Below, piece after piece: positions 17,597 to 32,452 of a stretch of 38,708 nucleotides of DNA; positions within the stretch are counted from its first letter, which is position 1; every line of letters begins with the position of its first letter. Origin of the DNA: an uncultured virus (IMG/VR IMGVR_UViG_3300032257_000051). The notes below the pieces were generated by a model. It ran no database searches, was not told the origin of the DNA, and worked only from the letters and a program-made list of their open reading frames with translations. The DNA lies in the IMG/VR virus record IMGVR_UViG_3300032257_000051, positions 1 through 38,708 of that record. One strand, written 5' to 3'. The translations under genes were made by a program, and so were the position numbers.

Positions 17597-17884
17597 ATGA
17601 CTTTCAAACATGACCCCACCACGCTTCTGAACGCCAGTGTGCATCTGCGGATCAGATCGATCGAGCTCGTCGGCGACGCGATCCACTGTGTCGCGATGGC
17701 GATGGTCCACGGCGACGAGAAGAAGGACTTCTCGTACAAGTGGGAAATCAATCAGGCGAAGGAAAAGATCGCCGCGCTGCGGAAGAGCATCGACCAGGCC
17801 GAGGAGTATATCGACCAGGCCGTCTTCGTGGAAGAGGCTGAGGCCGAAGCCAATGGCACCGCTGATGCTGGAGGTGACGCATGA
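17597..17884 (+). CDS. Hypothetical coiled-coil protein
   Basis: 95 aa, first gene behind the rightward promoter. ATGA overlap with the YqaJ gene. Confidence 0.75.
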   Translation: MTFKHDPTTLLNASVHLRIRSIELVGDAIHCVAMAMVHGDEKKDFSYKWEINQAKEKIAALRKSIDQAEEYIDQAVFVEEAEAEANGTADAGGDA

Positions 17885-18714
17885 GCCGCCTCCCCCTGAT
17901 CGCCGACCTCTCGTCCCTGGGCCTGTCCCAGGCAGCCCTGGAGGGCCGCGCTAAAACCATCGGCGGTTCGGATGCAAACATCCTTGCCGCTGGCAATCCT
18001 GAGCGCATCTATCAGATGTGGGCCGAGAAGGCCGGCAAGGTCGAGCGCGAGGATCTCTCCCAGGTTCTGCCCGTTCAGATGGGCAACTGGACCGAGCCCT
18101 TCAATGCCGCCTGGTATCAGCAGGAGACCGGCAACCTGATCTCGGAGCGCGACAGTGCGATCTCCGACATGGAGCACTCCTGGCGCACTGCCACCCTGGA
18201 TGGGTTCGTAACCCTGGACCAGGGCCGCGCCATCTGGGAGGCCAAGCACACGAACGCCTTCGCCTCAATGGAAGAGGCCATCGACAAGTACTTCCCTCAG
18301 CTCCAGCACAACATGGACGTGGCCGGCGTCAACTTCGCCGTCCTGTCTGTCCTGTTTGGGAACCTGAAGTATGGGTTCGCGGTGATCGAGCGCGACGAGG
18401 ACTATGCGGCCCAGCTGTTCGAGCTGGAGAAGAGCTTCTACCAGAACATGGTGACCGGCGAGGCTCCGGTTGTTCTCAACACCATCGAGAAGCCGGTGGA
18501 TCCAGACGACATGCGTGTCGTTGACATGGAAGGCAACAATGAGTGGGCCAGCCTCTCGGCTGACTACTTCGAGCACAAGGAAGGGGCGGCCACTTTCGAC
18601 AAGGCAAAGGCGTCCCTGAAGAAACTGGTCGAGAAGGACGTCAAGATGGCGTCCGGGTACGGCCTCATCATCAAGCGGTCGGCGAACGGTTCGCTCCGCT
18701 TCAGCGAGGAATAG
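17881..18714 (+). CDS. YqaJ-like (lambda exonuclease family) recombination nuclease
   Basis: R..TIGGSDA..L.......W.EK.G, G...EP, ATLDG, WEAKHT and Y.PQLQH.M.V motifs. Confidence 0.92.
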   Translation: MSRLPLIADLSSLGLSQAALEGRAKTIGGSDANILAAGNPERIYQMWAEKAGKVEREDLSQVLPVQMGNWTEPFNAAWYQQETGNLISERDSAISDMEHSWRTATLDGFVTLDQGRAIWEAKHTNAFASMEEAIDKYFPQLQHNMDVAGVNFAVLSVLFGNLKYGFAVIERDEDYAAQLFELEKSFYQNMVTGEAPVVLNTIEKPVDPDDMRVVDMEGNNEWASLSADYFEHKEGAATFDKAKASLKKLVEKDVKMASGYGLIIKRSANGSLRFSEE

Positions 18715-18717
18715 AAA

Positions 18718-19488
18718 ATGTCAGAAGTCCCCAACACCAAAAGGATCTATGGCGCTCTGGCGGCTGCCCAGGGAAAGCTGAAGAACCCCGAGAAGACCAA
18801 GGAAGCGGTCGTCAAGGGTAAGTCGAAATCGACCGGACGGGCATACGAGATGCGGTACAAGTACGCCGACATCGCCGATGTCCTGAACGCTGTGCGCCCT
18901 ATCCTGGCGAAGGAAGACCTGGCCGTCGCTCAGCACACGCGGGTGAGTGACAACCAGTACCTGTTCGTGGACACGATCCTCTACCATGGGGACGGTGGAT
19001 CCATCAAATCCGAGTTCCCTGTCTGCCCGGTCGTTGCCGATCAGCAGAAGATGGGTGGCTCGCTCACCTATGCCCGCCGCTATGCGCTGTGCGCTCTGCT
19101 GGGCATCGCAGCCGAGGAAGACATCGACCGCGCCGACCAGGTTGCCGAGGATTTCGAGAGCGGCAAGCGCCAGGCCCCTCCCCTGGGAGAGCAGAAGCAA
19201 GAGGAGCGGCCAGCGGGCAAGGTTCCTGATTTCCCAGCGCCAGACGCGCCGGCTGAAGTGAAGCCGGTAACCGGAAGCGACGAGGACATCCGTGCCTGGG
19301 CGACCCCGTTCGCCAACACCATCAAAAAGGCACCCTCCGCAACCATCATGGCGGACTGGTTTGATAGCAACAAGGACCACATCGAGCACCTGGCTATTGT
19401 GGCACCGAAGCTCAGCCAGCGCCTGACAGACATCAGCAAGGCCCGCGTTGAAGCGCTGGCCAAGGAAACCGAAGAGGCAAGCGAGTAA
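18718..19488 (+). CDS. erf: ERF-family single-strand annealing protein
   Basis: [19 protein letters not shown]...VRP.L, and [25 protein letters not shown] motifs. Confidence 0.92.
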
Positions 19489-19937
19489 TGGCAGGATCAG
19501 TGAACAAGGTCATCCTGGTGGGCAATCTCGGAGCAGATCCCGAGATCCGCCGGATGAATAGCGGCGACCCAGTGGTCAATCTACGGATCGCCACCAGTGA
19601 GAGCTGGCGGGACAAGAACTCCGGCGAGCGCAAAGAGAAGACCGAGTGGCACAGCGTCGTCATCTTCAATGAGAACCTGGCCAAGGTCGCGGAGAACTAT
19701 CTGAAGAAAGGCGCGAAGGTCTACCTGGACGGCCAGCTTCAGACCCGCAAATGGCAGGACCGCGACGGCAATGATCGCTACTCCACCGAGATCGTGCTGC
19801 AGCGGTTCCGGGGAGATCTCCAGATGCTCGACAAGCCGGACGGTCGAGAGGGCGGAGACGACCGCTATGATCGGGGCAACCAGAAGCGCGATGCAGAGTT
19901 CCGCAACGACGACATGGATGACGAGATCCCATTCTAG
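19488..19937 (+). CDS. ssb: Single-stranded DNA-binding protein
   Basis: [19 protein letters not shown]...[19 protein letters not shown]...DDEIPF, of alphaproteobacterial type. Confidence 0.98.
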
Positions 19938-21045: not shown

Positions 21046-21291
21046 CTAAGGACAACCGCCCAGGGTAGCGACCAGATCGTCACGCGCTTGGTCGATCACC
21101 TCATCCCCGGTGTCACCCTTGCTGCATAGAGCGGCGAGGGTGGCGCGGCCTTCCACCCGGTGGTGAACCTCTTCAATGTGGTTGTCCAGGTGGAAGATCG
21201 CGGTCGTTACTGCCGATGAAAGCGTGAGGAACCCCGCCGCGATGGCCGCGATGGTCTTCCACCCGAAGCTAACGGTTACCTGCTGGGCCAT
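21046..21291 (-). CDS. Small membrane-anchored lysis-cassette protein (possible spanin component)
   Basis: Start trimmed to ATG 21291 (GGAG upstream). N-terminal TM segment IAAIAAGFLTLSSAVTTAIF and two Cys. Confidence 0.6.
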   Translation of the reverse strand: MAQQVTVSFGWKTIAAIAAGFLTLSSAVTTAIFHLDNHIEEVHHRVEGRATLAALCSKGDTGDEVIDQARDDLVATLGGCP

Positions 21292-21727
21292 TATCATCTC
21301 CCGCAGGCGGGACTTGGTTCTGGCTGACGCCGATGCGGACAGACGAGCCGGTGTTCTCCAGCGTCCGACCCACGACATAGCCGCCAATGCCGACGGAGAG
21401 CAGCGTCCACATGCCATCAGGCATCTCAAGGACGGCGACACTCTCAACGCCCAGCGCCATGAGCCACGGCACCAGGATGTAGTTGTTGGCGAGGATGGCA
21501 CCGAAGATCAGCATGATGATCGGTCGCCAGTTGCGGGCGATCCAGCTCTTCGACTGGGCCTCTGCCACGACAACGTCCCGGCTGGCATTCACCAGCGAGC
21601 TCTCCTGCTCAAGCAGAGCCTGGCGCAGCTTGTGTTCAAACTCGATGCGCTTGTCCGGGTCTTCGATAAACTCTGAGATCAGGTCCGAGGCCGGCCCAAT
21701 GATCTGGCCTATCAATCGTCCAATCAT
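21269..21727 (-). CDS. Holin (3TM, GTA-holin type)
   Basis: I.DPDK.......AEAQS.SW...WRP...TM...LL..GIGGY..GRT.E pattern. GGAGG RBS. Confidence 0.88.
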   Translation of the reverse strand: MIGRLIGQIIGPASDLISEFIEDPDKRIEFEHKLRQALLEQESSLVNASRDVVVAEAQSKSWIARNWRPIIMLIFGAILANNYILVPWLMALGVESVAVLEMPDGMWTLLSVGIGGYVVGRTLENTGSSVRIGVSQNQVPPAGDDNGPAGNR

Positions 21728-21728
21728 G

Positions 21729-21989
21729 CTATCCTCCCATGGCCCGTAAGGCCGTCTCTAAAAATGCAATCGCAACAGCTGCCGCAATCGCACCGATCAG
21801 TCCCGATTGCCACCGCAAAAGAACTATCTGCTTTTCCAGCTCGACGATCCGGTCCTGCAGCTTTTCGCACTTCTCGTCAGTCTCTTCCTTCATCGACTTG
21901 GTGATCGAGAAGAGCGTCCTGATGTTGTCGATCAGAAGACGCTTGTACTCCTTGAAGTCGCCAGTCTCTATATCTTCGCCACCCATCAT
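21729..21989 (-). CDS. Coiled-coil protein with C-terminal transmembrane helix (holin accessory-like)
   Basis: Charged coiled coil followed by GLIGAIAAAVAIAFL. GGAGG RBS. Confidence 0.72.
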   Translation of the reverse strand: MMGGEDIETGDFKEYKRLLIDNIRTLFSITKSMKEETDEKCEKLQDRIVELEKQIVLLRWQSGLIGAIAAAVAIAFLETALRAMGG

Positions 21990-21993
21990 GGCC

Positions 21994-22467
21994 CTAGCCT
22001 CCGGGTAGGTTTCTCATGATGACTGAGCCCAGGCCCAGCCCTGCGATCTTTGCAACTCTCCCATCTTGATGACGCTCAACAGGCCACTTGGCAACGAATA
22101 GAAGCTGGTGCTTCTTTACCTGGGGGAGTGGAACCCGCTCCACGCCGACCTGCATTTTTCCTGTCCGTATTACTTTGAGATCGAGGTCCGAGAACTCGTC
22201 TGCCGTCTCTGTATCCCACGCCTCGCTATCGAGCCTGCCGGCATAAAGGATCGGCGCGATGTCGTACATCGTCTCGTAGGCCCGGTTCGTCAAAAGCATC
22301 TGGCCGTCATCGCCCTTCACCCAGGCAGGCATAGGCGCGTCCATGAAGAAGGCCTCGAACGCGCCGGGGTGGTTTATGAAGGCTACCTCGATGCTGTCCA
22401 GGCGATTGCTCTGCGCGATCAGCGCCTGGAGGCCTGTTTCTGCTGTCTCTATGCAGGCCATCTTCAC
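21994..22467 (-). CDS. Stand-alone PAS-domain protein
   Basis: FF.DAPMPAWVKGDDGQMLLTNRAYE.MY......AGR.D...W..ETA.EF...D..VI.TG......E........L...KWPV....G.V..IAG, a PAS_4-type pattern. Start GTG 22467 or ATG 22461. Confidence 0.85.
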   Translation of the reverse strand: MKMACIETAETGLQALIAQSNRLDSIEVAFINHPGAFEAFFMDAPMPAWVKGDDGQMLLTNRAYETMYDIAPILYAGRLDSEAWDTETADEFSDLDLKVIRTGKMQVGVERVPLPQVKKHQLLFVAKWPVERHQDGRVAKIAGLGLGSVIMRNLPGG

Positions 22468-22949
22468 CTCACCAGCTCAAAGTGGGGGAGGTCGTCGAAG
22501 CGCTGATCTGCTCGATCCCCGTCGCTGTCCCAGTCCGCGCCTGGGCGAACCTCGATCCCCAGCTCTTTGGCAATGCGAAGGATCAGGGCGTACAGAACGC
22601 CGAAGCCGAACTCATCATCCCAGTTGATCTTGCCCTCATACGGGGCGACATCGATAGCGTCCGACACGCCATCATCGTGGTCATCGCTGACCGGCTCTCC
22701 GGTATGAATGTGGACTGCCTGGTGCTTGGATCTGCGCTCGACCCCATCACGATGCGTGACAATCCGTCCAGGGCCTGATCGTCCCTGGGCGTAGAGCTCC
22801 TGCTGGCGAGGGGTTGATCGCTTGCCTTCGATCACTGCGAAGTCAATCGGAGAGATCTGCTCCACCCTTCGGATGATGCGGATCCAATCCGGGTGACATG
22901 TGCCCAGGCGCTGAAGCGACCTGGATCCTAGCTTTGCTTTCTGCGTCAT
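22464..22949 (-). CDS. Endolysin, M15-family (L-Ala-D-Glu) peptidase
   Basis: S..RL...HPD, DF.VIEG.RS..RQ..LYAQGR..PG.IVT, SKH...AID, and W.....D.PHFEL motifs. Confidence 0.92.
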   Translation of the reverse strand: MTQKAKLGSRSLQRLGTCHPDWIRIIRRVEQISPIDFAVIEGKRSTPRQQELYAQGRSGPGRIVTHRDGVERRSKHQAVHIHTGEPVSDDHDDGVSDAIDVAPYEGKINWDDEFGFGVLYALILRIAKELGIEVRPGADWDSDGDRADQRFDDLPHFELVR

Positions 22950-25900
22950 CGTTCTCGCATCCTCATCTCAGCCTGTCGCATCTGTATCAATCCGCGAACT
23001 CGCTCCGTATCTTGAGCGATTTCCCGAACCTGTCCACGGCTGTTTTGCCAGCGGGTCGCTGCCATGTCTGCATCGATTAGATCATAGCCCACTGCCTGGC
23101 CGGTGCGTTGTTGATAGAGACGCGCCACATCTGGGGACACCTCCTCAAGGGTTTCCCAGAGCACGTCATAGTCTGCCTGGGGCCGACCGATGCGCCCATG
23201 GAAGCCGGTCTGGCGCAGGGCGTTGTCCGCTTCCCAGACATTCATGGCGCGCAAAAGATCGATGGCCATGCCGCGCTCTTCGCCCGGCAGCTCGATCACC
23301 TGGTTGGACCCAGGGGCCCGCAAGCTGTTGTCGCTGAGCATGCGGCGGATCTGGCTGTTGATCTGCATCATCTCCTGGCCCCGGCGCATCGGGTGAGCAT
23401 CGCGAGCACCAGGTGCCAGGGCATTAAACCTCAGACTGCCAGCACCATGCGTGTTCACGAGCACCCATTCCTGGGAGACTGGATCCAGGTCTCTGAAATA
23501 AGCCAGGGCACGCTCTGTCTCCCCAGCGTCAACCAGGGCCCGATAGGCGGCCTGCGCTTTGGAGAGGTTCCCGCCTCTGCGGTTAGCTTCTCTCCAGAAG
23601 TCGGTGACGGACTGAGACCCGGTTGATGGGTTGTCAATGAAGCGGCGGATGATCAGCTGCTGGTCAGTTCCCATAGCCGGGGCGTTCGGATCCATCCCCC
23701 GCTCCAGGATCCTGTAGTCAGCTGCATAGGTGCCGCCCAGGGAGAAGAGCATGTGATCGATCAGCATCGGGCTCCAGCCCATGCTCTCACCCACCCAGCG
23801 CGAGAACGAGCTGGTCCGCTCAGAGTATTGGAGCGGCGCAGGGAGGCCAGACATATGATCAGGGACGATGGGCCTGCCGTTGTCGAACTGCTCATTGGTC
23901 ATGAGCTCACCAGCCACCTGGAGGATCGGGATCTCTCCTGGCGGCAGCATGGTGTGCTGCAGATCCAGGAAGGCCTGGCCGCGCTGGGTTGGATCGTCCC
24001 AGTAAGAGGCCAGGAGATAACGCTCCAGGATGTTGGCCGGCACAGCCAGCTCGAACGGCTTTGGCATGCGGATCCAGTTGCCGTTCTCATCCTTCCACAG
24101 GTGCCAGTGCGTGGCGCGCATGCGGTCATCGATCTCGGCATAGTCCGGGTCATCCTGGTGAGCCGCTGTCAGCATGGCAGAGAAGGCAGCCATGGCAGCC
24201 ATCCAGGGCCACATGGTCAGGGCCGCGCGCAGATCCTGCTTTTCAGCTTCCGACAGGTTGGGCTTCCGCCCCGAAAAAATCGGCCGCATAAGACGTGGCA
24301 GCTCGCGCAGAGTGCGACCACCCAGGGCGGTGCGAACCGCTTTCTCCGTACCCTGGAGAGCCGGATTAAAGAACGGGATCAGCCGGCCAAAGATGTAGGC
24401 CGTCATGGATCCGCCCTTCCGGCGGTAGTCGATCACATCTCGGGCCTGGTAAGCCGAGTGCAGAGCAGCGTCCCAGTCGGACATGCCCAGCTTCTTCGCC
24501 ATCTTGCGGTAGGCCTTGTAGTTGCCCAGGCGGGTCGAGCTCTCCGTGACGTCGAACGCCGCAGAAACACCGCGCCAGGATCCAACCTCACGAGCCTGCC
24601 GACCAGAGCGTAGATCCTGGACGTTGGCACTGCGCTGGTTCCGCTCGGCAATGGACGCATTGATGCCGCCCATATGGCCGCCAGCGACCATGTACTCCTG
24701 GACCAGCTCAGGGTTGCCGAAAAGGTTTGCCGCCCCCTCAGCGCCCGTCACAAACGGAGTGAAGCCATTAGGAGACAGGGTCGCGGTGGCGAACTGGTCG
24801 CGCACCCAGTTGACCAGGGGGAAGGCCGGGTGGCCTGTGATCGACTGGGTCAGGATCCGCGTCGGCAATGACACGAGATCCACCAGCCAGTGATGTCGGT
24901 CCTTGCCCAGGCCGACCAGGGCGTCCCAGAGCATCTGGCCGCGCTTGTCATTATTCAGGCGCAGCATCTTGCGCTGGCCATCGCGCCACAGATAGACGAT
25001 CTGCTCGCCGAGCTCAGGAGCATTCTCCAGGCCGTAGATCATCGTCATGGTCTGGCCATCCAAGGCCTCTTCCATTGCGCCGACAACCAGGGCAGCATCT
25101 TGCTCATCGACCCCAGCGCGCTCAGCAGCCAGACGGAAGATCTTCTTGGCGTCCACACCCTGGACAACGGTCTGCTGGGCAGGCACCTCGGTCAGGATCT
25201 CAGCAGATCCAGCACCAGTGGCAACGGCCATGTCATACAGAGCGCCGATGGTCTCGTTGCGCCAGATCGCCTGGTTGGTCTGGTAGGCGTCGCGGATCAT
25301 GCTCTCGATGGGATTGATGATCGAGCGATCAGATCCCTGGAAGCGGCGGATCCGGTTGTCGTTGTTGTTGGCAGAGCTCGTGGAGTTCACAGATCCGCGA
25401 CCGCGACGGGTATCGCGCAGCAGCGGAACGTAGAACGACCGGGTCTCAGTGAAGCGGGTGTACTGCTCCTGGGTGATGAAGCCGGCGTCCAGCTTCTTCT
25501 TGAGAAGGTTGCGGCCCCACTCATTCACCATATCGGCAGCTTCGCGCCACTTCGGGTTCGCAGCCTCATGGTCGCGAACAGCCTGCAGGTGCTCGGCCAG
25601 GGAATAGCGATCCGGGTTCCGGCGCAGTAGGCCCTCATCTTTCCGGCGGTACTCCTCGATGATCCGACGGCTGGCCAGGTAAGCGCCGAACTGATCGACC
25701 CTCTCCTCTTTCCACTCGGTCATGACGTTGTCACCCAGGGCCAGCTGGAGAGCTTTCCCCAGGGCGGGGCCCTCGGCCTTCAGCTTCTTGAAGCCCACCA
25801 CGCCATTCATGATATCTACGGACCCACCCTGGTATCCATCCGCAGCCAGGCGAGCCAGGCGCGAGAAGTCATTCGATGGGCTGAAGTCGTAGTTGGTTCC

Positions 25901-28900
25901 GTGGTTCTTCTGATACATGGAGGCCAGGTCACGCTGGACCCGATAGATCGGTGCGGTCGCGTCAAACATCGCGGCATAGAAGCCCTCGATCCAGTCGGCC
26001 ACCAGGGAGCCGCCTCGATAGCCGGCCTCCTCGCGCATGTTCTTCACGCCATCGATGATGCCAGAGATCCCGTTGCGGACACCCGTCCGAGAGATGTGGC
26101 CCTCAATCGCCCTGGCGGACGACTGGGTCATGTATCGGTTGTAGCGCCGGCTGAGCTCCTGGAGGCCGCTCATCAGCTTCTCATCAGCAGAGAAGAAGGC
26201 GTCCACAAAAGACTTCAGGGCGTTGGGTGTGTTCTTGGCCAGGTAGACCGGGCTCTCGACGAAGATGCGGACCATCTCGGCGAAGGCCTCGTCCATCTGC
26301 TCGCCTGCGCGAACATCGACACCAGCATTGAGCTGGAGCATCTCCTGGCCAGCTTCCCGGACCAGTTTCGCATAGGCCTCCGGGTGACGAGCTGCCAGCA
26401 TGTGGCCGGCCTCATGCACCAGGGTGGCGAAGTCTTCACCAAAGCGCAGGCGGATCTCGTGGGTGCGCTCGTTGAACTCACCGTCGGCACCACGCTGGGT
26501 CATCCGGCCTTCAGTCACAGCCGTGCCCAGGATGCGCTTCAGATCCTCGACCAGGTCGCGGATCGCTACGGTCTCCAACTTCTCGTCCAGGAGGCCTTCC
26601 ATCTTGGCGTCGGCATCCTCGGCCACAGCCCCGTCCTCATTGACAGGGATCGGGCGGCCCCGTTGCCTGGATCCTGGAGCGTTGGCGTACTTCTTCCTCT
26701 TTCGGCGAGCCAGGGTGCGCTCAGAAGTCGGGACGATGAACAGGCTGTCCATCACACGCCGGCCTTCCAGGTCGAGCGAGATCTGATCAGATCCACGCAG
26801 GGCGCGATAGATCTCTCCCATCCAGTTCTTGAACGCCTCGAACGCGCCTTCCAGGCCTTCGACCGGAGCAACGCCCTCTTTCAGGTATGCCTCGAAACCC
26901 TCGGCGAACTTTTCGTGCTGTTCGCGAGTAGGGCGGGCACCCTCCTCCACGCCCAGCCACTGGCGCATCGCATCATATTCTTCCTTGATGACCTTGCTGT
27001 CAGCTGCGAGCTCTCGGTACATCTCCAGGAAGAGGTGCGCGCTCTCGTGCATGAAGCTCGACACATCGGACTGCTCACCCAGGCGGATCAGAACCTCATT
27101 GCCAGAGAAGACACCGCCCTCCGGGATCGTCACCGAGGCGCGGTTCTCCTGCTTCATGAAGTCAGGGTTCGAACCATCGAAGGCTCCCTCGTTGAAAGGG
27201 GACTTGATCTGCTCAGGAGAGAACACCACCCAGCTCGTGGATCCATAATCCTCGGCGCGATTGGTGTACTTGATGCCGTCATAACCCTCTTCGATGAGAC
27301 GGTTCATGATGTTCTCGTGCGATGTCGGGACGAGACCAGGCATCAGGTCGGTGTCCCTGGGCCCCGCCTTGATCTGCTCGCGGATATACTCCGCCAGGTC
27401 TGGCCGTCCATTATCATCGATGACGTCAGCCACCTGGTCGAACATATCGTTGTCATTCTGCCAAGGTCTGGTGATGAACCCTCGGCGCGGACCCGCTTCT
27501 CTGCCTACGTCGATGGGATTGTTGATCCGCAGATAGACAGGCAGCGTCCGTTCGCCGACCTCCGCTCCCTTGTTGGTGTTTTCTCCGCGCGTCCCTGATC
27601 GATCCTTCGCCGCCTGCTGGGTGCCAAAGTGGCTCAGGATCTTGAACTGACTGAAGTCACTCCAGTGATTGGTGTTGTGATACTGCGGCTCCGGGTTGCC
27701 CTGGCCATCGACAACCTTGCTGTCCTCCCACCAGGCCTTGAACTCCTGGGTCTCAGTTGGAGACTGCATCAGGATGTTGGGATTGGATCCGTCGAAGCTC
27801 CCCTCGTTGAAAGGAGACTTGATTTGACCAGCCTGGAAAGCGTTCCAGGTGAGCTCGCCCTCCTCGAAAGCGCTCATGCCATCAAAGCCAGCGCCCTCAA
27901 TCTTCCGGCGGAAGACATCATCAAAGGCGAACATCTCGAACGCCGTGGTGTCGATGTCTTTGCCCTTCATGCTGCGGAAGGATGTGTCCTCAATGGTGAA
28001 GGCCGTGCCGTTTGCCTCGTTGACAGCGTCCAGGATCTCCTGGGCACCATAGTTCTCTGACATGTCGATCTGTTCGGGGACGACAAACGGGTTCTCAATC
28101 CGCAGGTATGCGGGGATCGTTCTCGGCTGCCCATCACCATCATCGTTGTACTTTTCGGTGACGCTGGGGTTCACAGCAAACCACGCCCCGAAGTCCAGGG
28201 TATCGAACGACACGAAGTCATTGGGCGTGCCATGGTAGACAACCAGGGGCAGGCCATCAGGGCCCACCACCTTGCTGTCACCGAACCACTCCCGGAACTC
28301 AGGCGTGCTGACCGGGTCGATGTCTCCCGACTGATTGAGGGTGAAGCTGTCGTCCGTTACCGGGGCTGTTGTTGCAGCATCCTGCGGGTTAAGCGTCGTC
28401 TCAGATCCGGCTGTTGATCCAGCAGATCCAGGCCGTCCGCTCCGCCCAGCATCCTGGCCACCTTGGGCCGCGATTTCTTTTGCGATTTCTTCATAGCTAA
28501 TATCCGCCGTCTGGCGAGCTCCCATCTGTCCGTACAAACGCTTTTCATAGTACCACAGAACGGCCTGGATGTCAGCAATGGACATCTCGACGCCGCGCCG
28601 CTTCAGCCGGCGACGGACATTCTCCGTCGTGCGGATCATGAACTCCCGGTCAGAAGCGTTGAAGGGCTGATCTTCCAGAGCCTCGTAAGCGTGCTTATAG
28701 AGGGTGTTGGCAGCCTTCTCGGTGATCGTGCCGTTCTTGTATCCCTTCGCGGCATAGGACGCCACATACTCAACCGTGTGAGCCAGGAGCTGGTGGTCGG
28801 TCATCGCCTCCTGGGAAGTGTCCAGGCCCGTATCGTGGCGCAGCAGATCCCGGAAGCGAGCCAGGCCCGCCTCTGTCGGTTGCGCCAGGAGCGTCCCGCG

Positions 28901-31900
28901 CATCCGGTTGAAGGTCCGGGACCACCAGCGGTCCATCGTCAGATAGCCGGTGTCGCCCATCAGATTGGCGTAGAAGGCACCCAGCTTTGGACCGAAGACC
29001 AGGGCGGCATTCGGCAGCTGCATGTCTGCCTTGTAGGCGACGTTGAACTCCACGCCCTCGGCGCGGGCCTGGGCCCTCAGATTAGAGACCGTGTCTTTCT
29101 TCAGCAGCCAGGTGTGCATGCCCTGGGGGCCGCGATTGATCAGAACGTCCTGGATGTTGGCCAGGTTCACCCGCATGGACTTGTTGCGCTCGCCCCCGAA
29201 GGTGACATCGTTTGAGACCGTGCCGTCATTGCGGAACTGCTCATAGACCTGGGCGGCAAAGCGGAAGTTCTCACGAACCTTCGCGCCGTCCGATGTGATG
29301 GCGATCAGCGCCGTCATGAAGTTGCGGGCGGCCTGCTGGCTTCCCAGGATCTTCACGCCAGGGAGATCGGCAGACATGTCCCCGGCCAGCTCAGGAAACC
29401 GCGCGGCCATCTCATCGAGAGCACGCTGGAACTTTTCGGTGTACCATCCGACAGCTGACTTCCCAGGCTGCTGAGCGGCCAGGTCAACCTCGAACATGAC
29501 CTCATCGACCATCCAGCCGGCAATACGACGCGCAGCTGCTGGGGAATAGTCGCCACGCTCGATGGTGCCGTACTTCTTCCGCTGGCGCGCCTCCAGGGCC
29601 GCAGCGATCTCGCGGGTCTTGTAAGTCTTGCCAGGCTCCAGGCCGTACTTCTTCAGGGTCTGAGTGCCACGGCGAAGCGGCACAGACTGGTTGAGGGTCT
29701 GGCTGTTGGCGAACGGGCTCGGCTTGCCCTTGTAGACAGACGCTGGGCTGATAGCGATCTGCTCATTGAGAACCTGGTCATTCATGTCCTCAGTCGCGCC
29801 TGGGGCCGTAGCACGGCGCTCCTCTGCAGACATGTTTCTGCGGGCCTCGGTGTTCCTGGCCTCAACCTCTCCGGCCAGGGCCATGTAGAAGGCGTAGTTG
29901 CCCGGCTGCACCCAGGAGGCCATGCCCTCGTCGAGCACGAGCTCGGCACCATGGTCGCCATAGATCTCTCTGGCGCGCTCGCGGATGGGTGCCATCTCGG
30001 GGCTCTCCAGGAAAGCCTTGTATTCCTGGAAGGCCACCTCGGCGAGCTGGGTCGCGTCCTCTTCGGTCAGGGTCTCATTATTCGCGGCGCGGGCGTTCAG
30101 CTCTTCGACAACCACCGCATTAAGAAGCTGCTCATATGCCATCCGCTGGTCCGGGAAGAGCACGATCTCGGGATCCTCCAGAAGGCGGGTCCGCATCGTT
30201 GGCTCATCGAGCGTGTGAATAGCCTCTACCAGGAGCTCTCGGTTCGGCGTTCCATCTGCGAACTCAGCAGACAGATCGGTCCATCCGTTGCCCATGGTCT
30301 CGGCATAGTAGGCCTTCGCCTGGTCAGGATTGCCGCCAGGTGCAAAGCGCTCGATGTGCTGGATGGCGTGTTGCGTCTCGTGCATCAGCGTGCCCAGGGC
30401 GGCGTCCATGCTTGGAGCCTCAACCTGGATCACGGTGCCAAAGGATTGCGGCCCAGCGGAAGGATCCCCGTCCAGGATCTCGCCATAGCCGCCAGAGATC
30501 TGGGCCTCTTTCAGGGACGGGTCGATGCGGACCTGTGTCTTCAAGCGCTGCAGAACCGGGTAAGCATCGAACAGCTGCTCGTGCTGGATCATGTCGCCCA
30601 TCGGGCCTTCCTGCCAGCCGGTTTCGTTCGGGTCGAGATATCCTTCGGCCCAGGATGCCTGGCTGTCGTCAACCTCGAAGCGCCACTTGCGGTCCTGGCC
30701 ACGATGCCAGCCGGTTTCCTGGCGGATCTCTTCAGGCGTTGTGCCGGCGCTGTCCAGCTCCTGGGCGCGAGCCAGGGAAGTGCGGTCTGCCGTCTTCGCG
30801 TTCACGCCGGCAAACTGCTGGAGCTCGTTGGAGGCCTGCCCAGGCTCGCCCTGCTCGATCCGCAGGTTCATGTCTTTGATACGCGCAGCGAAGGCTTCAG
30901 GATCCTTGGTCGCCAAGGTCTCCAGTTTCGCCTGGAAAATGGCCGTCGAGGCAATGATCTCACCGTCCTCCTGGCCTTGCTGTGCCAGGCCCTGGGAGAC
31001 AACATCGACCAGCCGGTCGATCTCGGGCTGGATCTCCTGGGGAACCACGCCTTCGAGGCCAGGTTCAGGGAGCGGCATGCTGCGGCGCTCTGCTTCATCG
31101 CGCAGCGTCTCCAGCTCAGAGACGTGGCCGTCAAGCTGATTGATGATCTCGGGGGTGGAGTATCCCTGGGCCTTCATTGCATCCCAGGCAGCGTTGTACT
31201 CGACCTCTCCCTGGATGATCGCCGCAGCCAGGAGATCGTCGGACAGAGCCCTCTGGCCACTGTTTGCCAGCTGGCCACCGACAGAGACACCGCCGCCGAC
31301 CGCAAAGCCGATCAGGCCACCAAGAGCTGCCGCGTACCCAGCGCCCTCCAGGACGTCCCGATCTGGATCCCAGCCGACCGTGCGGGCGTTGATGTTTTGA
31401 GCAATATGCGCGCCGCCTTCCTGGATCGCCTCTTCCAGGCTCTCCGCTCCGCCTTCTTGCAGAACGCGCCGCCAGGAAAAGCGCCTTGGCATGAAGCGCT
31501 CGACGCGCCCCATGGCCCGGCTCAGAGGGATGGCCTCGGTTACGCCGATGCCCATGCCGACCAGGGTGCCAATCGCTCCCTGAGCAAACGAAGCATCGTG
31601 CGCGACAGCATCTTCCAGCGCCTGAGATCCGCCCTGGGTCGAGCCCATAGCCATCATGGCAGGAAGTCTCGCGGACCCGGCAACAACGCCGCCGGCCAGG
31701 TAAGGCACGGTCGATCCGAGGCCCTCACCAAGGGCCTGGCCGATCTGCTGCTGCTGCTGTCTGAAGCTATCGGTCGGGAAGATCTCTTGCTGCTGCTCGC
31801 GATAAGCGTCGGCTTGACCGTAGAGCCAGGTGTCTTCCTGGGGCATTTCACCCCGGAGCGCAGCCTCCACATTGGAGGCGACCCGGAGCGCATCAGACGG

Positions 31901-32452
31901 CAGACGGGTGGCTTCATTCACGAAGCCGTGAGCCGCCGACGGAAGGGCGTGCATAGTCGTGCCCTCTTCCTCGCCATCCACAACGCGCTGAGCTCGCTCT
32001 AAAGCCTCATTGGCGGCCTGTTCATCCGCCCGAGCATTATGGCGTGCAACATTCCCCCATACGTGCTGACTGACGCCGCCGCCAATCGGAAAGGGGATGT
32101 CATCAACGCCGCCGTCTTCGACAAACTCTCGATAGGCCCGCCGCATTGGGGCACGGCGCTCCTGGTGGGCAAGATCCCGCTCATTGGACCGCTGCCGTTC
32201 TTCATCATCGAGATAGAATAAACCAGGGAAGCGCTCCTGGAGTGCCTGGTAGCCCTCCCGAGCACCGCCCAGCGGCGTGAAACCACTCTCGACCGCCCGG
32301 ACCCTCTCCCAGAAGGATGGGGCAGCCTCGACCGGCGGGGTGGGCGCAGCGCCACCTTGTTCAGAGAGGATCTCTTCTCGGCGGGCTCGGATTTGCTCCA
32401 AGAGCCGCTGGCGACGTTCCTCTGGCGTTTCCTGCTGTTCGATGAGAGCCAT
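22946..32452 (-). CDS. Giant polyvalent virion/ejection protein (LPD23-like + zincin, glycosylase-like, two ART-PolyVal-like, two further HExxH, LPD38-like)
   Basis: 3168-aa ORF at the end of the ejection-gene block. Motifs: TGWHRG.D.KWRFEVDD, HETQH..AGEVEAR, GWY..GPKLGAF..TMDRW..QAVLW, two F..W..DSKVV..YH.T..YLRI.NP..G.DG..QIKS domains, HESAH, HEAGH, PFFN...QG and RMPKPFE. Confidence 0.88.
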   Translation of the reverse strand: MALIEQQETPEERRQRLLEQIRARREEILSEQGGAAPTPPVEAAPSFWERVRAVESGFTPLGGAREGYQALQERFPGLFYLDDEERQRSNERDLAHQERRAPMRRAYREFVEDGGVDDIPFPIGGGVSQHVWGNVARHNARADEQAANEALERAQRVVDGEEEGTTMHALPSAAHGFVNEATRLPSDALRVASNVEAALRGEMPQEDTWLYGQADAYREQQQEIFPTDSFRQQQQQIGQALGEGLGSTVPYLAGGVVAGSARLPAMMAMGSTQGGSQALEDAVAHDASFAQGAIGTLVGMGIGVTEAIPLSRAMGRVERFMPRRFSWRRVLQEGGAESLEEAIQEGGAHIAQNINARTVGWDPDRDVLEGAGYAAALGGLIGFAVGGGVSVGGQLANSGQRALSDDLLAAAIIQGEVEYNAAWDAMKAQGYSTPEIINQLDGHVSELETLRDEAERRSMPLPEPGLEGVVPQEIQPEIDRLVDVVSQGLAQQGQEDGEIIASTAIFQAKLETLATKDPEAFAARIKDMNLRIEQGEPGQASNELQQFAGVNAKTADRTSLARAQELDSAGTTPEEIRQETGWHRGQDRKWRFEVDDSQASWAEGYLDPNETGWQEGPMGDMIQHEQLFDAYPVLQRLKTQVRIDPSLKEAQISGGYGEILDGDPSAGPQSFGTVIQVEAPSMDAALGTLMHETQHAIQHIERFAPGGNPDQAKAYYAETMGNGWTDLSAEFADGTPNRELLVEAIHTLDEPTMRTRLLEDPEIVLFPDQRMAYEQLLNAVVVEELNARAANNETLTEEDATQLAEVAFQEYKAFLESPEMAPIRERAREIYGDHGAELVLDEGMASWVQPGNYAFYMALAGEVEARNTEARRNMSAEERRATAPGATEDMNDQVLNEQIAISPASVYKGKPSPFANSQTLNQSVPLRRGTQTLKKYGLEPGKTYKTREIAAALEARQRKKYGTIERGDYSPAAARRIAGWMVDEVMFEVDLAAQQPGKSAVGWYTEKFQRALDEMAARFPELAGDMSADLPGVKILGSQQAARNFMTALIAITSDGAKVRENFRFAAQVYEQFRNDGTVSNDVTFGGERNKSMRVNLANIQDVLINRGPQGMHTWLLKKDTVSNLRAQARAEGVEFNVAYKADMQLPNAALVFGPKLGAFYANLMGDTGYLTMDRWWSRTFNRMRGTLLAQPTEAGLARFRDLLRHDTGLDTSQEAMTDHQLLAHTVEYVASYAAKGYKNGTITEKAANTLYKHAYEALEDQPFNASDREFMIRTTENVRRRLKRRGVEMSIADIQAVLWYYEKRLYGQMGARQTADISYEEIAKEIAAQGGQDAGRSGRPGSAGSTAGSETTLNPQDAATTAPVTDDSFTLNQSGDIDPVSTPEFREWFGDSKVVGPDGLPLVVYHGTPNDFVSFDTLDFGAWFAVNPSVTEKYNDDGDGQPRTIPAYLRIENPFVVPEQIDMSENYGAQEILDAVNEANGTAFTIEDTSFRSMKGKDIDTTAFEMFAFDDVFRRKIEGAGFDGMSAFEEGELTWNAFQAGQIKSPFNEGSFDGSNPNILMQSPTETQEFKAWWEDSKVVDGQGNPEPQYHNTNHWSDFSQFKILSHFGTQQAAKDRSGTRGENTNKGAEVGERTLPVYLRINNPIDVGREAGPRRGFITRPWQNDNDMFDQVADVIDDNGRPDLAEYIREQIKAGPRDTDLMPGLVPTSHENIMNRLIEEGYDGIKYTNRAEDYGSTSWVVFSPEQIKSPFNEGAFDGSNPDFMKQENRASVTIPEGGVFSGNEVLIRLGEQSDVSSFMHESAHLFLEMYRELAADSKVIKEEYDAMRQWLGVEEGARPTREQHEKFAEGFEAYLKEGVAPVEGLEGAFEAFKNWMGEIYRALRGSDQISLDLEGRRVMDSLFIVPTSERTLARRKRKKYANAPGSRQRGRPIPVNEDGAVAEDADAKMEGLLDEKLETVAIRDLVEDLKRILGTAVTEGRMTQRGADGEFNERTHEIRLRFGEDFATLVHEAGHMLAARHPEAYAKLVREAGQEMLQLNAGVDVRAGEQMDEAFAEMVRIFVESPVYLAKNTPNALKSFVDAFFSADEKLMSGLQELSRRYNRYMTQSSARAIEGHISRTGVRNGISGIIDGVKNMREEAGYRGGSLVADWIEGFYAAMFDATAPIYRVQRDLASMYQKNHGTNYDFSPSNDFSRLARLAADGYQGGSVDIMNGVVGFKKLKAEGPALGKALQLALGDNVMTEWKEERVDQFGAYLASRRIIEEYRRKDEGLLRRNPDRYSLAEHLQAVRDHEAANPKWREAADMVNEWGRNLLKKKLDAGFITQEQYTRFTETRSFYVPLLRDTRRGRGSVNSTSSANNNDNRIRRFQGSDRSIINPIESMIRDAYQTNQAIWRNETIGALYDMAVATGAGSAEILTEVPAQQTVVQGVDAKKIFRLAAERAGVDEQDAALVVGAMEEALDGQTMTMIYGLENAPELGEQIVYLWRDGQRKMLRLNNDKRGQMLWDALVGLGKDRHHWLVDLVSLPTRILTQSITGHPAFPLVNWVRDQFATATLSPNGFTPFVTGAEGAANLFGNPELVQEYMVAGGHMGGINASIAERNQRSANVQDLRSGRQAREVGSWRGVSAAFDVTESSTRLGNYKAYRKMAKKLGMSDWDAALHSAYQARDVIDYRRKGGSMTAYIFGRLIPFFNPALQGTEKAVRTALGGRTLRELPRLMRPIFSGRKPNLSEAEKQDLRAALTMWPWMAAMAAFSAMLTAAHQDDPDYAEIDDRMRATHWHLWKDENGNWIRMPKPFELAVPANILERYLLASYWDDPTQRGQAFLDLQHTMLPPGEIPILQVAGELMTNEQFDNGRPIVPDHMSGLPAPLQYSERTSSFSRWVGESMGWSPMLIDHMLFSLGGTYAADYRILERGMDPNAPAMGTDQQLIIRRFIDNPSTGSQSVTDFWREANRRGGNLSKAQAAYRALVDAGETERALAYFRDLDPVSQEWVLVNTHGAGSLRFNALAPGARDAHPMRRGQEMMQINSQIRRMLSDNSLRAPGSNQVIELPGEERGMAIDLLRAMNVWEADNALRQTGFHGRIGRPQADYDVLWETLEEVSPDVARLYQQRTGQAVGYDLIDADMAATRWQNSRGQVREIAQDTERVRGLIQMRQAEMRMRER

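Follow-up and report, generated by a model that had tools for sequence, protein, structure and literature searches.

The window analyzed here is the whole 38,708-nt stretch of DNA from an uncultured virus (IMG/VR IMGVR_UViG_3300032257_000051, positions 1 to 38,708). On its minus strand lie five consecutive genes: an endolysin (22464–22949), a 157-aa PAS protein (21994–22467), an 86-aa coiled-coil protein with a C-terminal TM (21729–21989), a GTA-type 3TM holin (21269–21727), and a small protein with an N-terminal TM (21046–21297). The endolysin stop overlaps the GTG start of the PAS gene by 4 nt, and an alternative ATG start for the PAS gene lies at 22461 behind a GAGG-type ribosome site. The gap between the PAS stop and the start of the 86-aa gene is 4 nt, and that between the 86-aa stop and the holin start is 1 nt. 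The 3' end of the holin gene overlaps the small TM gene, which starts at 21297 or 21291, by 29 or 23 nt. No promoter-like site was found on that strand inside the cassette. The gene order and spacing given in the original prediction, in which all five genes overlap or lie within 5 nt of each other, are therefore confirmed, as is the absence of a kinase, GGDEF, or DNA-binding part in the PAS protein. A megablast search with 20.7 kb of the window against 50,697 phage records found no match.

The 161-aa endolysin matched phrog_465 (E = 1.5e-34) and had no Pfam hit. It has no hydrophobic N-terminal segment, so it is probably cytoplasmic until the holin acts. The 152-aa holin matched PF11351 (GTA_holin_3TM; 69.8 bits against a gathering cut-off of 24.8, E = 3.8e-19) and the holin family phrog_3427 (E = 4.5e-29). 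The designation “3TM” rests on the family name, since a crude hydropathy scan flagged only one segment. The last gene of the cassette encodes an 83-aa protein with an N-terminal TM and a C-terminal part of roughly 50 aa holding two Cys. It matched no Pfam or PHROG family, and a search for an o-spanin (a lipobox ORF) embedded in or following this gene found none. A spanin-like protein or a second regulator are possibilities for its role.

The PAS protein matched Pfam PAS_4 (PF08448) at residues 44–139 with a score of 33.5 bits against a gathering cut-off of 23.1 (E = 5.4e-08), and no other domain was detected. The AF2 model has a mean pLDDT of 94.7 and a pTM of 0.80. It shows an N-terminal helix (residues 2–32) followed by the canonical PAS order of two strands (48–52 and 57–60), four helices (62–68, 72–75, 80–83, and 86–102), and three strands (106–114, 119–132, and 138–150), in agreement with the five-stranded antiparallel sheet of PAS domains. 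A Foldseek search with this model gave at least 423 PDB matches at E ≤ 1e-3 with a probability of 1.00, and every listed one is a PAS or LOV domain. LOV domains carry a conserved Cys that forms a flavin adduct, and His-ligated heme PAS sensors carry a His in the F helix. No invariant or nearly invariant Cys or His was found in two family alignments (69 and 37 sequences), which argues against LOV-type flavin adducts and His-ligated heme, and no cofactor signature was found.

The 86-aa protein has one hydrophobic segment near its C-terminus (residues 55–73) and an N-terminal coiled coil predicted to be cytoplasmic. This architecture, and the position beside holin and endolysin genes, resemble those of XhlA. 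An alignment of the partner proteins shows a shared N-terminal F/W..YR motif. A Pfam scan at E ≤ 1 listed only DUF2680, YuiB, PTRF_SDPR, DUF2951, DASH_Dad3, and Lipoprotein_8, all below cut-off, and no match to XhlA (PF10779). The nearest named ESM Atlas clusters are DUF7201, XhlA, and DUF2951, all at a score of 0.92, which we regard only as a lead. A search for homologous proteins returned six relatives of the partner, one of them the window's own, with no Pfam family. The same search with the PAS protein returned only the protein itself and one 78% relative.

To examine whether the PAS gene is a one-off, we collected its relatives. A phmmer search against 1.84 billion representatives gave 860 hits at E ≤ 1e-3, and 67 of the 150 listed are shorter than 260 aa and carry a single PAS. 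Searches for related loci with the single protein or a 5-sequence alignment found nothing usable, and a degenerate DNA motif was used instead. The motif found 34 IMG/VR stretches, 34 of which are family members by HMM, 12 stretches in 596 Gb of prokaryote genomes, of which 9 are small members, and 81 metagenome stretches. In all, 124 of 129 loci carry a member, giving 77 clusters at 85% identity, 76 of which are small proteins. The gene is not a one-off but belongs to a phage family of small PAS proteins. One pattern hit is a 1591-aa bacterial protein, and the best non-phage relatives in the phmmer search are multi-PAS proteins of 750–2460 aa (down to E = 4e-24).

The family reaches the membrane in three ways. 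All 16 of 16 stand-alone PAS clusters are directly followed, at a gap of −55 to +18 nt, by a gene for a small coiled-coil protein with a TM at or near its C-terminus. In 54 of 76 clusters, mostly Bacteroidota-associated, a hydrophobic N-terminal segment and a coiled coil are instead carried in the same chain as PAS. One subfamily is a 3TM-PAS fusion with holin-like topology, and a search for related loci with its alignment returned only the locus already in the set. The five 3TM-PAS proteins matched PAS_4 only in a profile search, and the N-terminal TM of another fused PAS protein (P0054) gave a weak hit to Phage_holin_2_3 (E = 1.5e-3; 18.9 bits, below the cut-off of 28.8). In 46 of the 54 clusters with an N-terminal TM, more K/R residues follow the TM than precede it (means of 3.1 and 0.8, respectively). 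This bias predicts an N-out, C-in orientation and so a cytoplasmic PAS.

Peptidoglycan hydrolases lie within two genes of PAS in 16 of 76 clusters (at most 20), and they comprise M15_3, GH19 with PG_binding_1, Amidase_2, M15_4, M23, Phage_lysozyme, and phrog_465. Four more hydrolase matches (Phage_lysozyme, Amidase_3, Amidase_2, and M15_3) occur among the 148 other neighbors scanned, and DUF5675 sits at +1 in 3 clusters. By position, counting the three DUF5675, 14 lie at +1, 2 at +2, and 3 at −1. Where the next gene is a wall hydrolase, it usually overlaps the PAS stop by 4 nt. Most clusters (56 to 60 of 76) show no recognizable wall hydrolase within two genes, although many of these loci are cut short or have neighbors that match nothing, and PHROGs named few neighbors. 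As a control, we examined 148 same-strand genes five or more genes away in the same loci, and none of the 25 families shown (of 53) is a wall hydrolase; weak hydrolase hits cannot be excluded because the other families were not shown. The binomial probability of 16 or more of 76 is 9e-07 if 5% of genes lie that close to an endolysin and 3e-03 if 10% do, both rates being assumed. In a quick tree, in which 36 of 69 inner branches are unresolved, the adjacent enzyme switches between GH19, M15_3, and DUF5675 within one well-supported PAS clade. The link is therefore to the cassette and not to one enzyme.

Other lysis genes also recur nearby. Genes resembling u-spanins (lipobox plus C-terminal TM, read by eye) sit at +1 in the loci designated L009 and L029, at +2 in L130, and at +3 in L115. 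Holin-like genes with 2–3 TM sit next to PAS in eight loci (L021, L026, L031, L035, L043, L077, L086, and L111). In cultured phages, gp089 of Cellulophaga phage phi14:2 (TM, coiled coil, and PAS) overlaps the GH19 endolysin gp088, and Chryseobacterium phage MA9V-1 has GH108 at −2 and a PG_binding_3 protein at −1. In contrast, some −1 neighbors are major capsid, terminase, tail, or tail-fiber proteins, and the gene often sits at a module boundary, where accessory genes (morons) also collect. In Brevundimonas phage Kabachok (356 kb), the one of seven matching Brevundimonas records whose region was read, the PAS plus anchor pair lies beside tRNA genes, PhoH, and a DnaT-like gene, and no lysis gene was recognized within 4 kb.

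The original prediction interpreted the PAS protein as a ligand- or redox-gated lysis timer that binds the adjacent coiled-coil membrane protein or the cytoplasmic N-terminus of the holin, and this interpretation is partly supported. The PAS fold and the association of homologues with lysis genes, the absence of either of which was set beforehand as a ground for refutation, were borne out, and homologues are linked or fused to membrane anchors. The suggestion that PAS works with the adjacent coiled-coil protein receives strong comparative support from the 16 of 16 stand-alone clusters and from the fused form of most other members. Prediction of a complex between PAS and residues 1–59 of the 86-aa partner gave a score of 0.00 in two runs without controls, and we count it neither for nor against binding.

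Our best reading, which we consider about as likely as not, is that the PAS and 86-aa proteins form a two-gene module of the lysis cassette, a membrane-tethered cytoplasmic sensor that works with or on the holin. In this view, the N-terminal helix of PAS (residues 2–32) would pair with the cytoplasmic coiled coil of the 86-aa protein, whose C-terminal TM would sit in the bilayer beside the 3TM holin. The state of the PAS domain (ligand, redox, or dimer state) would change the oligomeric state of the coiled coil and TM and shift the time of hole formation. The module would act either as a brake, like an antiholin, or as a helper, as the co-holin XhlA does with XhlB in PBSX. Our analysis establishes the PAS fold as modeled, the gene order, the obligatory pairing or fusion of PAS with an anchor across the family, the predicted cytoplasmic side, and the recurrent adjacency to endolysins, holin-like genes, and spanin-like genes. 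The physical contact, the action on the holin, the signal, and any effect on timing are inferred, and neither experiment nor contact prediction supports binding to the partner or the holin. The module travels with non-homologous holins and endolysins, so a specific contact with this 3TM holin is not implied. An encoded position between endolysin and holin, next to the latter, is as expected for an antiholin or holin regulator.

Alternatively, the module may itself be a membrane-permeabilizing effector, a new holin type, in which the TM, coiled-coil, and PAS chain, or PAS plus its membrane-anchored partner, would make or nucleate the lesion and PAS would serve as the cytoplasmic oligomerization or trigger domain. 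This appears unlikely but has some support: the module combines freely with unrelated endolysins and holins, as holins do; no other small TM gene lies between the structural genes and the endolysin in phi14:2; the 3TM-PAS form has the N-out, C-in layout of class I holins; and the weak holin hit of P0054 and the XhlA cluster near the partner point the same way, XhlA being described as a putative holin essential for PBSX lysis (PMC6834076). However, the window and several other loci already have a holin or holin-like gene next door, no TM part reaches a holin family cut-off, and a folded 120-aa sensor domain is unusual baggage for a holin. Equally unlikely in our view is a moron unrelated to lysis, a membrane-tethered PAS decoy that pairs with the PAS domains of host membrane sensor kinases or otherwise rewires host signaling, and that sits near lysis and tail-fiber genes only because this boundary tolerates insertions. 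The large multi-PAS relatives, the capsid, terminase, and tail neighbors, and the Kabachok pair are consistent with this idea, while the tight junctions between endolysin and holin without an internal promoter-like site, the 4-nt overlaps with wall hydrolases, and the adjacency that persists while the enzyme family changes speak against it.

Another late membrane function, such as superinfection exclusion, sensing of secondary infection, or holding the endolysin at the membrane until release, is very unlikely. Membrane tethering, the late-operon position, and the frequent location directly upstream of and overlapping the endolysin would fit, but the PAS is predicted to be cytoplasmic and not periplasmic, where incoming phage would be sensed. 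A specific chaperone for the adjacent endolysin was also considered and dropped, because the adjacent enzymes belong to at least eight unrelated families.

A more far-reaching possibility, which remains doubtful, is that many phages of Bacteroidota, Alphaproteobacteria, and other hosts carry in the lysis cassette a dedicated cytoplasmic sensor that gates holin triggering on a metabolite or on the redox or energy state of the dying cell. That would be the first sensor-domain antiholin or holin, with the TM, coiled-coil, and PAS form and the 3TM-PAS form representing a new class of signal-gated holin. Literature searches, which did not extend to supplementary files, found no description of a PAS protein in a lysis cassette, and PMC4541368 proved irrelevant on inspection. 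Lysis timing sets phage fitness and is thought to be set mainly by holin accumulation, with only a few known signal inputs such as T4 lysis inhibition. A widespread PAS sensor built into lysis cassettes would mean that many environmental phages read an intracellular cue before bursting the host. It would also provide a testable handle on lysis genes in Bacteroidota and crAss-like phages, where holins are poorly known, a marker for lysis cassettes in metagenomic phages, and a natural ligand-gated lysis switch for engineering. Cultured systems exist in Cellulophaga phi14:2, Chryseobacterium MA9V-1 and MA9V-2, and the Brevundimonas jumbo phages.

Among known systems, the xhlA-xhlB-xlyA cassette of PBSX in Bacillus subtilis also has a small protein directly beside a holin and a wall hydrolase, and XhlA has an N-terminal coiled coil and a C-terminal TM. 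XhlA cassettes are not known to carry a PAS gene, and the host here is probably Gram-negative. The T4 antiholins RI (periplasmic) and RIII (cytoplasmic) are small accessory proteins that bind a domain of holin T and set lysis time in response to a signal, which is superinfection; they are not PAS proteins, whereas here a generic sensor fold is tethered by a coiled coil. The 3TM-PAS subfamily shares with class I holins such as lambda S, which has an S107 antiholin form, the three-TM layout with a cytoplasmic C-terminal regulatory part, but that part is a folded PAS domain rather than a short charged tail. The short stand-alone proteins PpSB1-LOV and PF5-LOV and the FAD-PAS redox sensors NifL and Aer have a single PAS core with a flanking helix and no enzymatic output, and they are the top fold matches (2gj3, 9qq6, 7r56, and 7r5n) at 12–19% identity. 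Those proteins are cellular and are not membrane-tethered through a separate partner. VqmA-Phage of vibriophage VP882, a PAS plus HTH quorum-sensing receptor, couples a small-molecule signal to killing of the host through a phage-encoded PAS domain, but it is a DNA-binding transcription factor that controls the lysis-lysogeny switch, while the protein here has no DNA-binding part, is predicted to be tied to the membrane, and is encoded inside the lysis cassette. Host VqmA structures (6ugl, 6ide, and 6kju) are among the fold matches of the PAS model.

The 38,708-base record is linear, and its completeness was estimated to be about 48%. It encodes a major head protein, scaffold, portal, large terminase, an ejection protein and a RecE-like exonuclease. 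The GC content is about 60%, and no phage record was close at the DNA level. The exonuclease (phrog_434) belongs to a recombination module on the plus strand (17881-19937), together with a 256-aa protein and an SSB-like 149-aa protein, and this module converges on the lysis cassette. Directly upstream of the endolysin gene on the minus strand, and overlapping its start, lies the gene for a 3168-aa polyvalent protein (22946-32452) with ART-PolyVal (two stretches), LPD38 and LPD23 domains, which is probably an injected multi-enzyme protein.

The lysis cassette consists of five genes on the minus strand, all overlapping or separated by no more than 4 nt. These are an endolysin at 22464-22949 (phrog_465, E 1.5e-34), a 157-aa protein at 21994-22467 whose only family match is PAS_4 (E 5.4e-08, 33.5 bits against a cut-off of 23.1), an 86-aa protein at 21729-21989 with one hydrophobic segment near its C-terminus, a holin at 21269-21727 (GTA_holin_3TM, E 3.8e-19; phrog_3427), and an 83-aa protein at 21046-21297 with an N-terminal TM. 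The last protein contains two Cys and matches no family. No lipoprotein (o-spanin) ORF is embedded in its gene or follows it, so the spanin function of this phage is unaccounted for. The AF2 model of the 157-aa protein, built on a 69-sequence alignment, has a mean pLDDT of 94.7 and shows a long N-terminal helix (residues 2-32) followed by the canonical PAS order of strands and helices. A Foldseek search returned at least 423 PDB matches at E <= 1e-3, and all of the listed ones are PAS or LOV domains, with NifL, PpsR, short LOV proteins and VqmA as the top matches. The original prediction of a stand-alone PAS domain embedded in the lysis cassette is confirmed.

To examine whether this protein belongs to a wider group, we performed an exhaustive phmmer search, which gave 860 hits at E <= 1e-3. 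Of the 150 listed hits, 67 are single-PAS proteins shorter than 260 aa, while the rest are long proteins with one to nine matched PAS stretches. We also searched with a degenerate DNA motif encoding P-x-W-h-K-x3-G-x-M-x3-N-x2-Y. In IMG/VR, 34 stretches were found, and 34 of 34 were confirmed by an HMM built from the family alignment. In 596 Gb of prokaryote genomes, 12 stretches were found, comprising 9 small family members, one 1591-aa protein and two with no match. In metagenome contigs, 81 stretches were found, of which 3 had no match and one was the locus under study and was dropped. Together with two named phage loci and the present one, 124 of 129 loci (numbered with the prefix L hereafter) carry a member, and the members fall into 77 clusters at 85% identity, 76 of them small proteins. 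The 1591-aa protein (PAS at residues 323-457; L048, a Burkholderiaceae MAG contig) is the only motif match inside a long cellular protein, and it illustrates the cellular multi-PAS proteins from which the phage family probably derives. Cultured phages with a member are Cellulophaga phi14:2, Chryseobacterium MA9V-1 and MA9V-2, and seven Brevundimonas jumbo phages.

The family members appear to reach the membrane in three ways. In 16 of 16 clusters where the PAS protein has no hydrophobic segment of its own, the next gene (gap of -55 to +18 nt) encodes a 72-148-aa protein with an N-terminal coiled coil and a TM at or near its C-terminus. This set includes the present cassette, Brevundimonas phage Kabachok, one ORF cut at its 5' end (L088), and one locus read by eye (L055). 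These partner proteins share a weak N-terminal F/W..YR..h motif. In 54 of 76 clusters, the PAS chain itself starts with a hydrophobic segment and a coiled coil. Finally, a small subfamily carries three TM segments before the PAS domain (3TM-PAS). Four clusters are truncated and two could not be classified. More K/R residues follow the TM than precede it in 46 of the 54 fused clusters (means of 3.1 against 0.8), which predicts an N-out, C-in topology and hence a cytoplasmic PAS domain. The eight exceptions are mostly ORFs that were started too early by our longest-ORF rule. A quick tree of 72 PAS domains separates the two main architectures with few changes (4, against 14.7 in shuffles), and the fused forms are mostly Bacteroidota-associated. 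One origin of each form is not excluded, although the resolution of the tree is poor.

Representatives of the neighbour clusters match several wall-hydrolase families, namely Peptidase_M15_3, Amidase_2, Peptidase_M15_4, Peptidase_M23, Phage_lysozyme, and PG_binding_1 on a GH19-like protein, and DUF5675 also recurs. The phi14:2 neighbour is a phrog_181 endolysin annotated as GH19. Counting only these clusters, 16 of 76 PAS clusters have a wall hydrolase within two genes. With the three DUF5675 proteins at +1 included, the positions are 14 at +1, 2 at +2 and 3 at -1. Among the 148 other neighbours at +/-1 and +/-2, four more match Phage_lysozyme, Amidase_3, Amidase_2 or M15_3. In MA9V-1, a GH108 enzyme and a PG_binding_3 protein precede the PAS gene. 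Genes for u-spanin-like proteins (lipobox plus C-terminal TM, read by eye) and for 2-3 TM holin-like proteins are frequent neighbours. The closest relative with context (L111, 44% identity) reads tail-like gene, PAS, anchored partner and 2TM protein. Within one well-supported PAS clade, the adjacent enzyme changes family.

As a control, 148 same-strand genes located five or more genes away in the same loci were scanned, and none of the 25 families inspected, out of 53, is a wall hydrolase, with the remaining 28 families being a limit of this control. A binomial test gives a probability of 9e-07 for 16 or more of 76 if 5% of genes lie that close to an endolysin and 3e-03 if 10% do, both rates being our assumption. 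On the other hand, most clusters show no recognisable hydrolase nearby, and some neighbours are capsid, terminase or tail genes. In the 356-kb jumbo phage Kabachok (L003, 3857-4787), the pair of stand-alone PAS and membrane-anchored coiled-coil genes lies next to a tRNA cluster, PhoH and a DnaT-like gene, and not beside recognisable lysis genes. Moreover, the tail-lysis boundary is also a known place for accessory genes.

The observation is more general than could be seen from a single sequence, and it defines an undescribed, widespread phage module of PAS plus a membrane anchor within lysis cassettes. Most likely, the PAS domain is held at the cytoplasmic face of the inner membrane, either by its own TM and coiled coil or by a separately encoded membrane-anchored coiled coil, and would act there with or on the holin. 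In the present cassette, the PAS helix 2-32 would pair with the coiled coil of the 86-aa protein, whose TM would lie beside the 3TM holin. The fold, the gene order, the obligatory anchor, the predicted side of the membrane and the lysis neighbourhood are supported directly by the analysis, while the contact, the signal and any effect on timing are inferred. The interpretation in the original prediction, a ligand- or redox-gated lysis timer, is supported only in part, and sensor-gated lysis remains a plausible hypothesis. The family has no invariant Cys or His, which argues against LOV-type and His-haem chemistry.

The 86-aa protein resembles XhlA of PBSX in architecture and position, and XhlA is described as a putative holin essential for lysis (PMC6834076). 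A search of the ESM Atlas listed an XhlA cluster at 0.92, which we regard as a lead only, and the 86-aa protein is nevertheless not a Pfam XhlA member. The T4 antiholins RI and RIII are functional analogues, and VqmA-Phage is a phage PAS protein with a different output. Full-text literature searches, which did not cover supplementary files, found no description of a PAS protein in a lysis cassette.

In L021 (790-1979, minus strand; also represented as L131), the tail genes are followed by a roughly 100-aa 3TM protein, then a 3TM-PAS fusion (P0082), and then a Phage_lysozyme that overlaps it by 4 nt, and this could be a holin paired with a sensor-bearing holin-like protein. In the Bacteroidota-like phage contigs L009 (2988-3482) and L029 (729-1226), the genes directly after the PAS gene encode proteins with a lipobox near the N-terminus and a TM at the C-terminus, which is the layout of unimolecular spanins. 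DUF5675 proteins repeatedly occupy the slot taken elsewhere by endolysins (+1 of PAS in L033, L105 and L110; -3 in L112), suggesting that DUF5675 is a peptidoglycan hydrolase.
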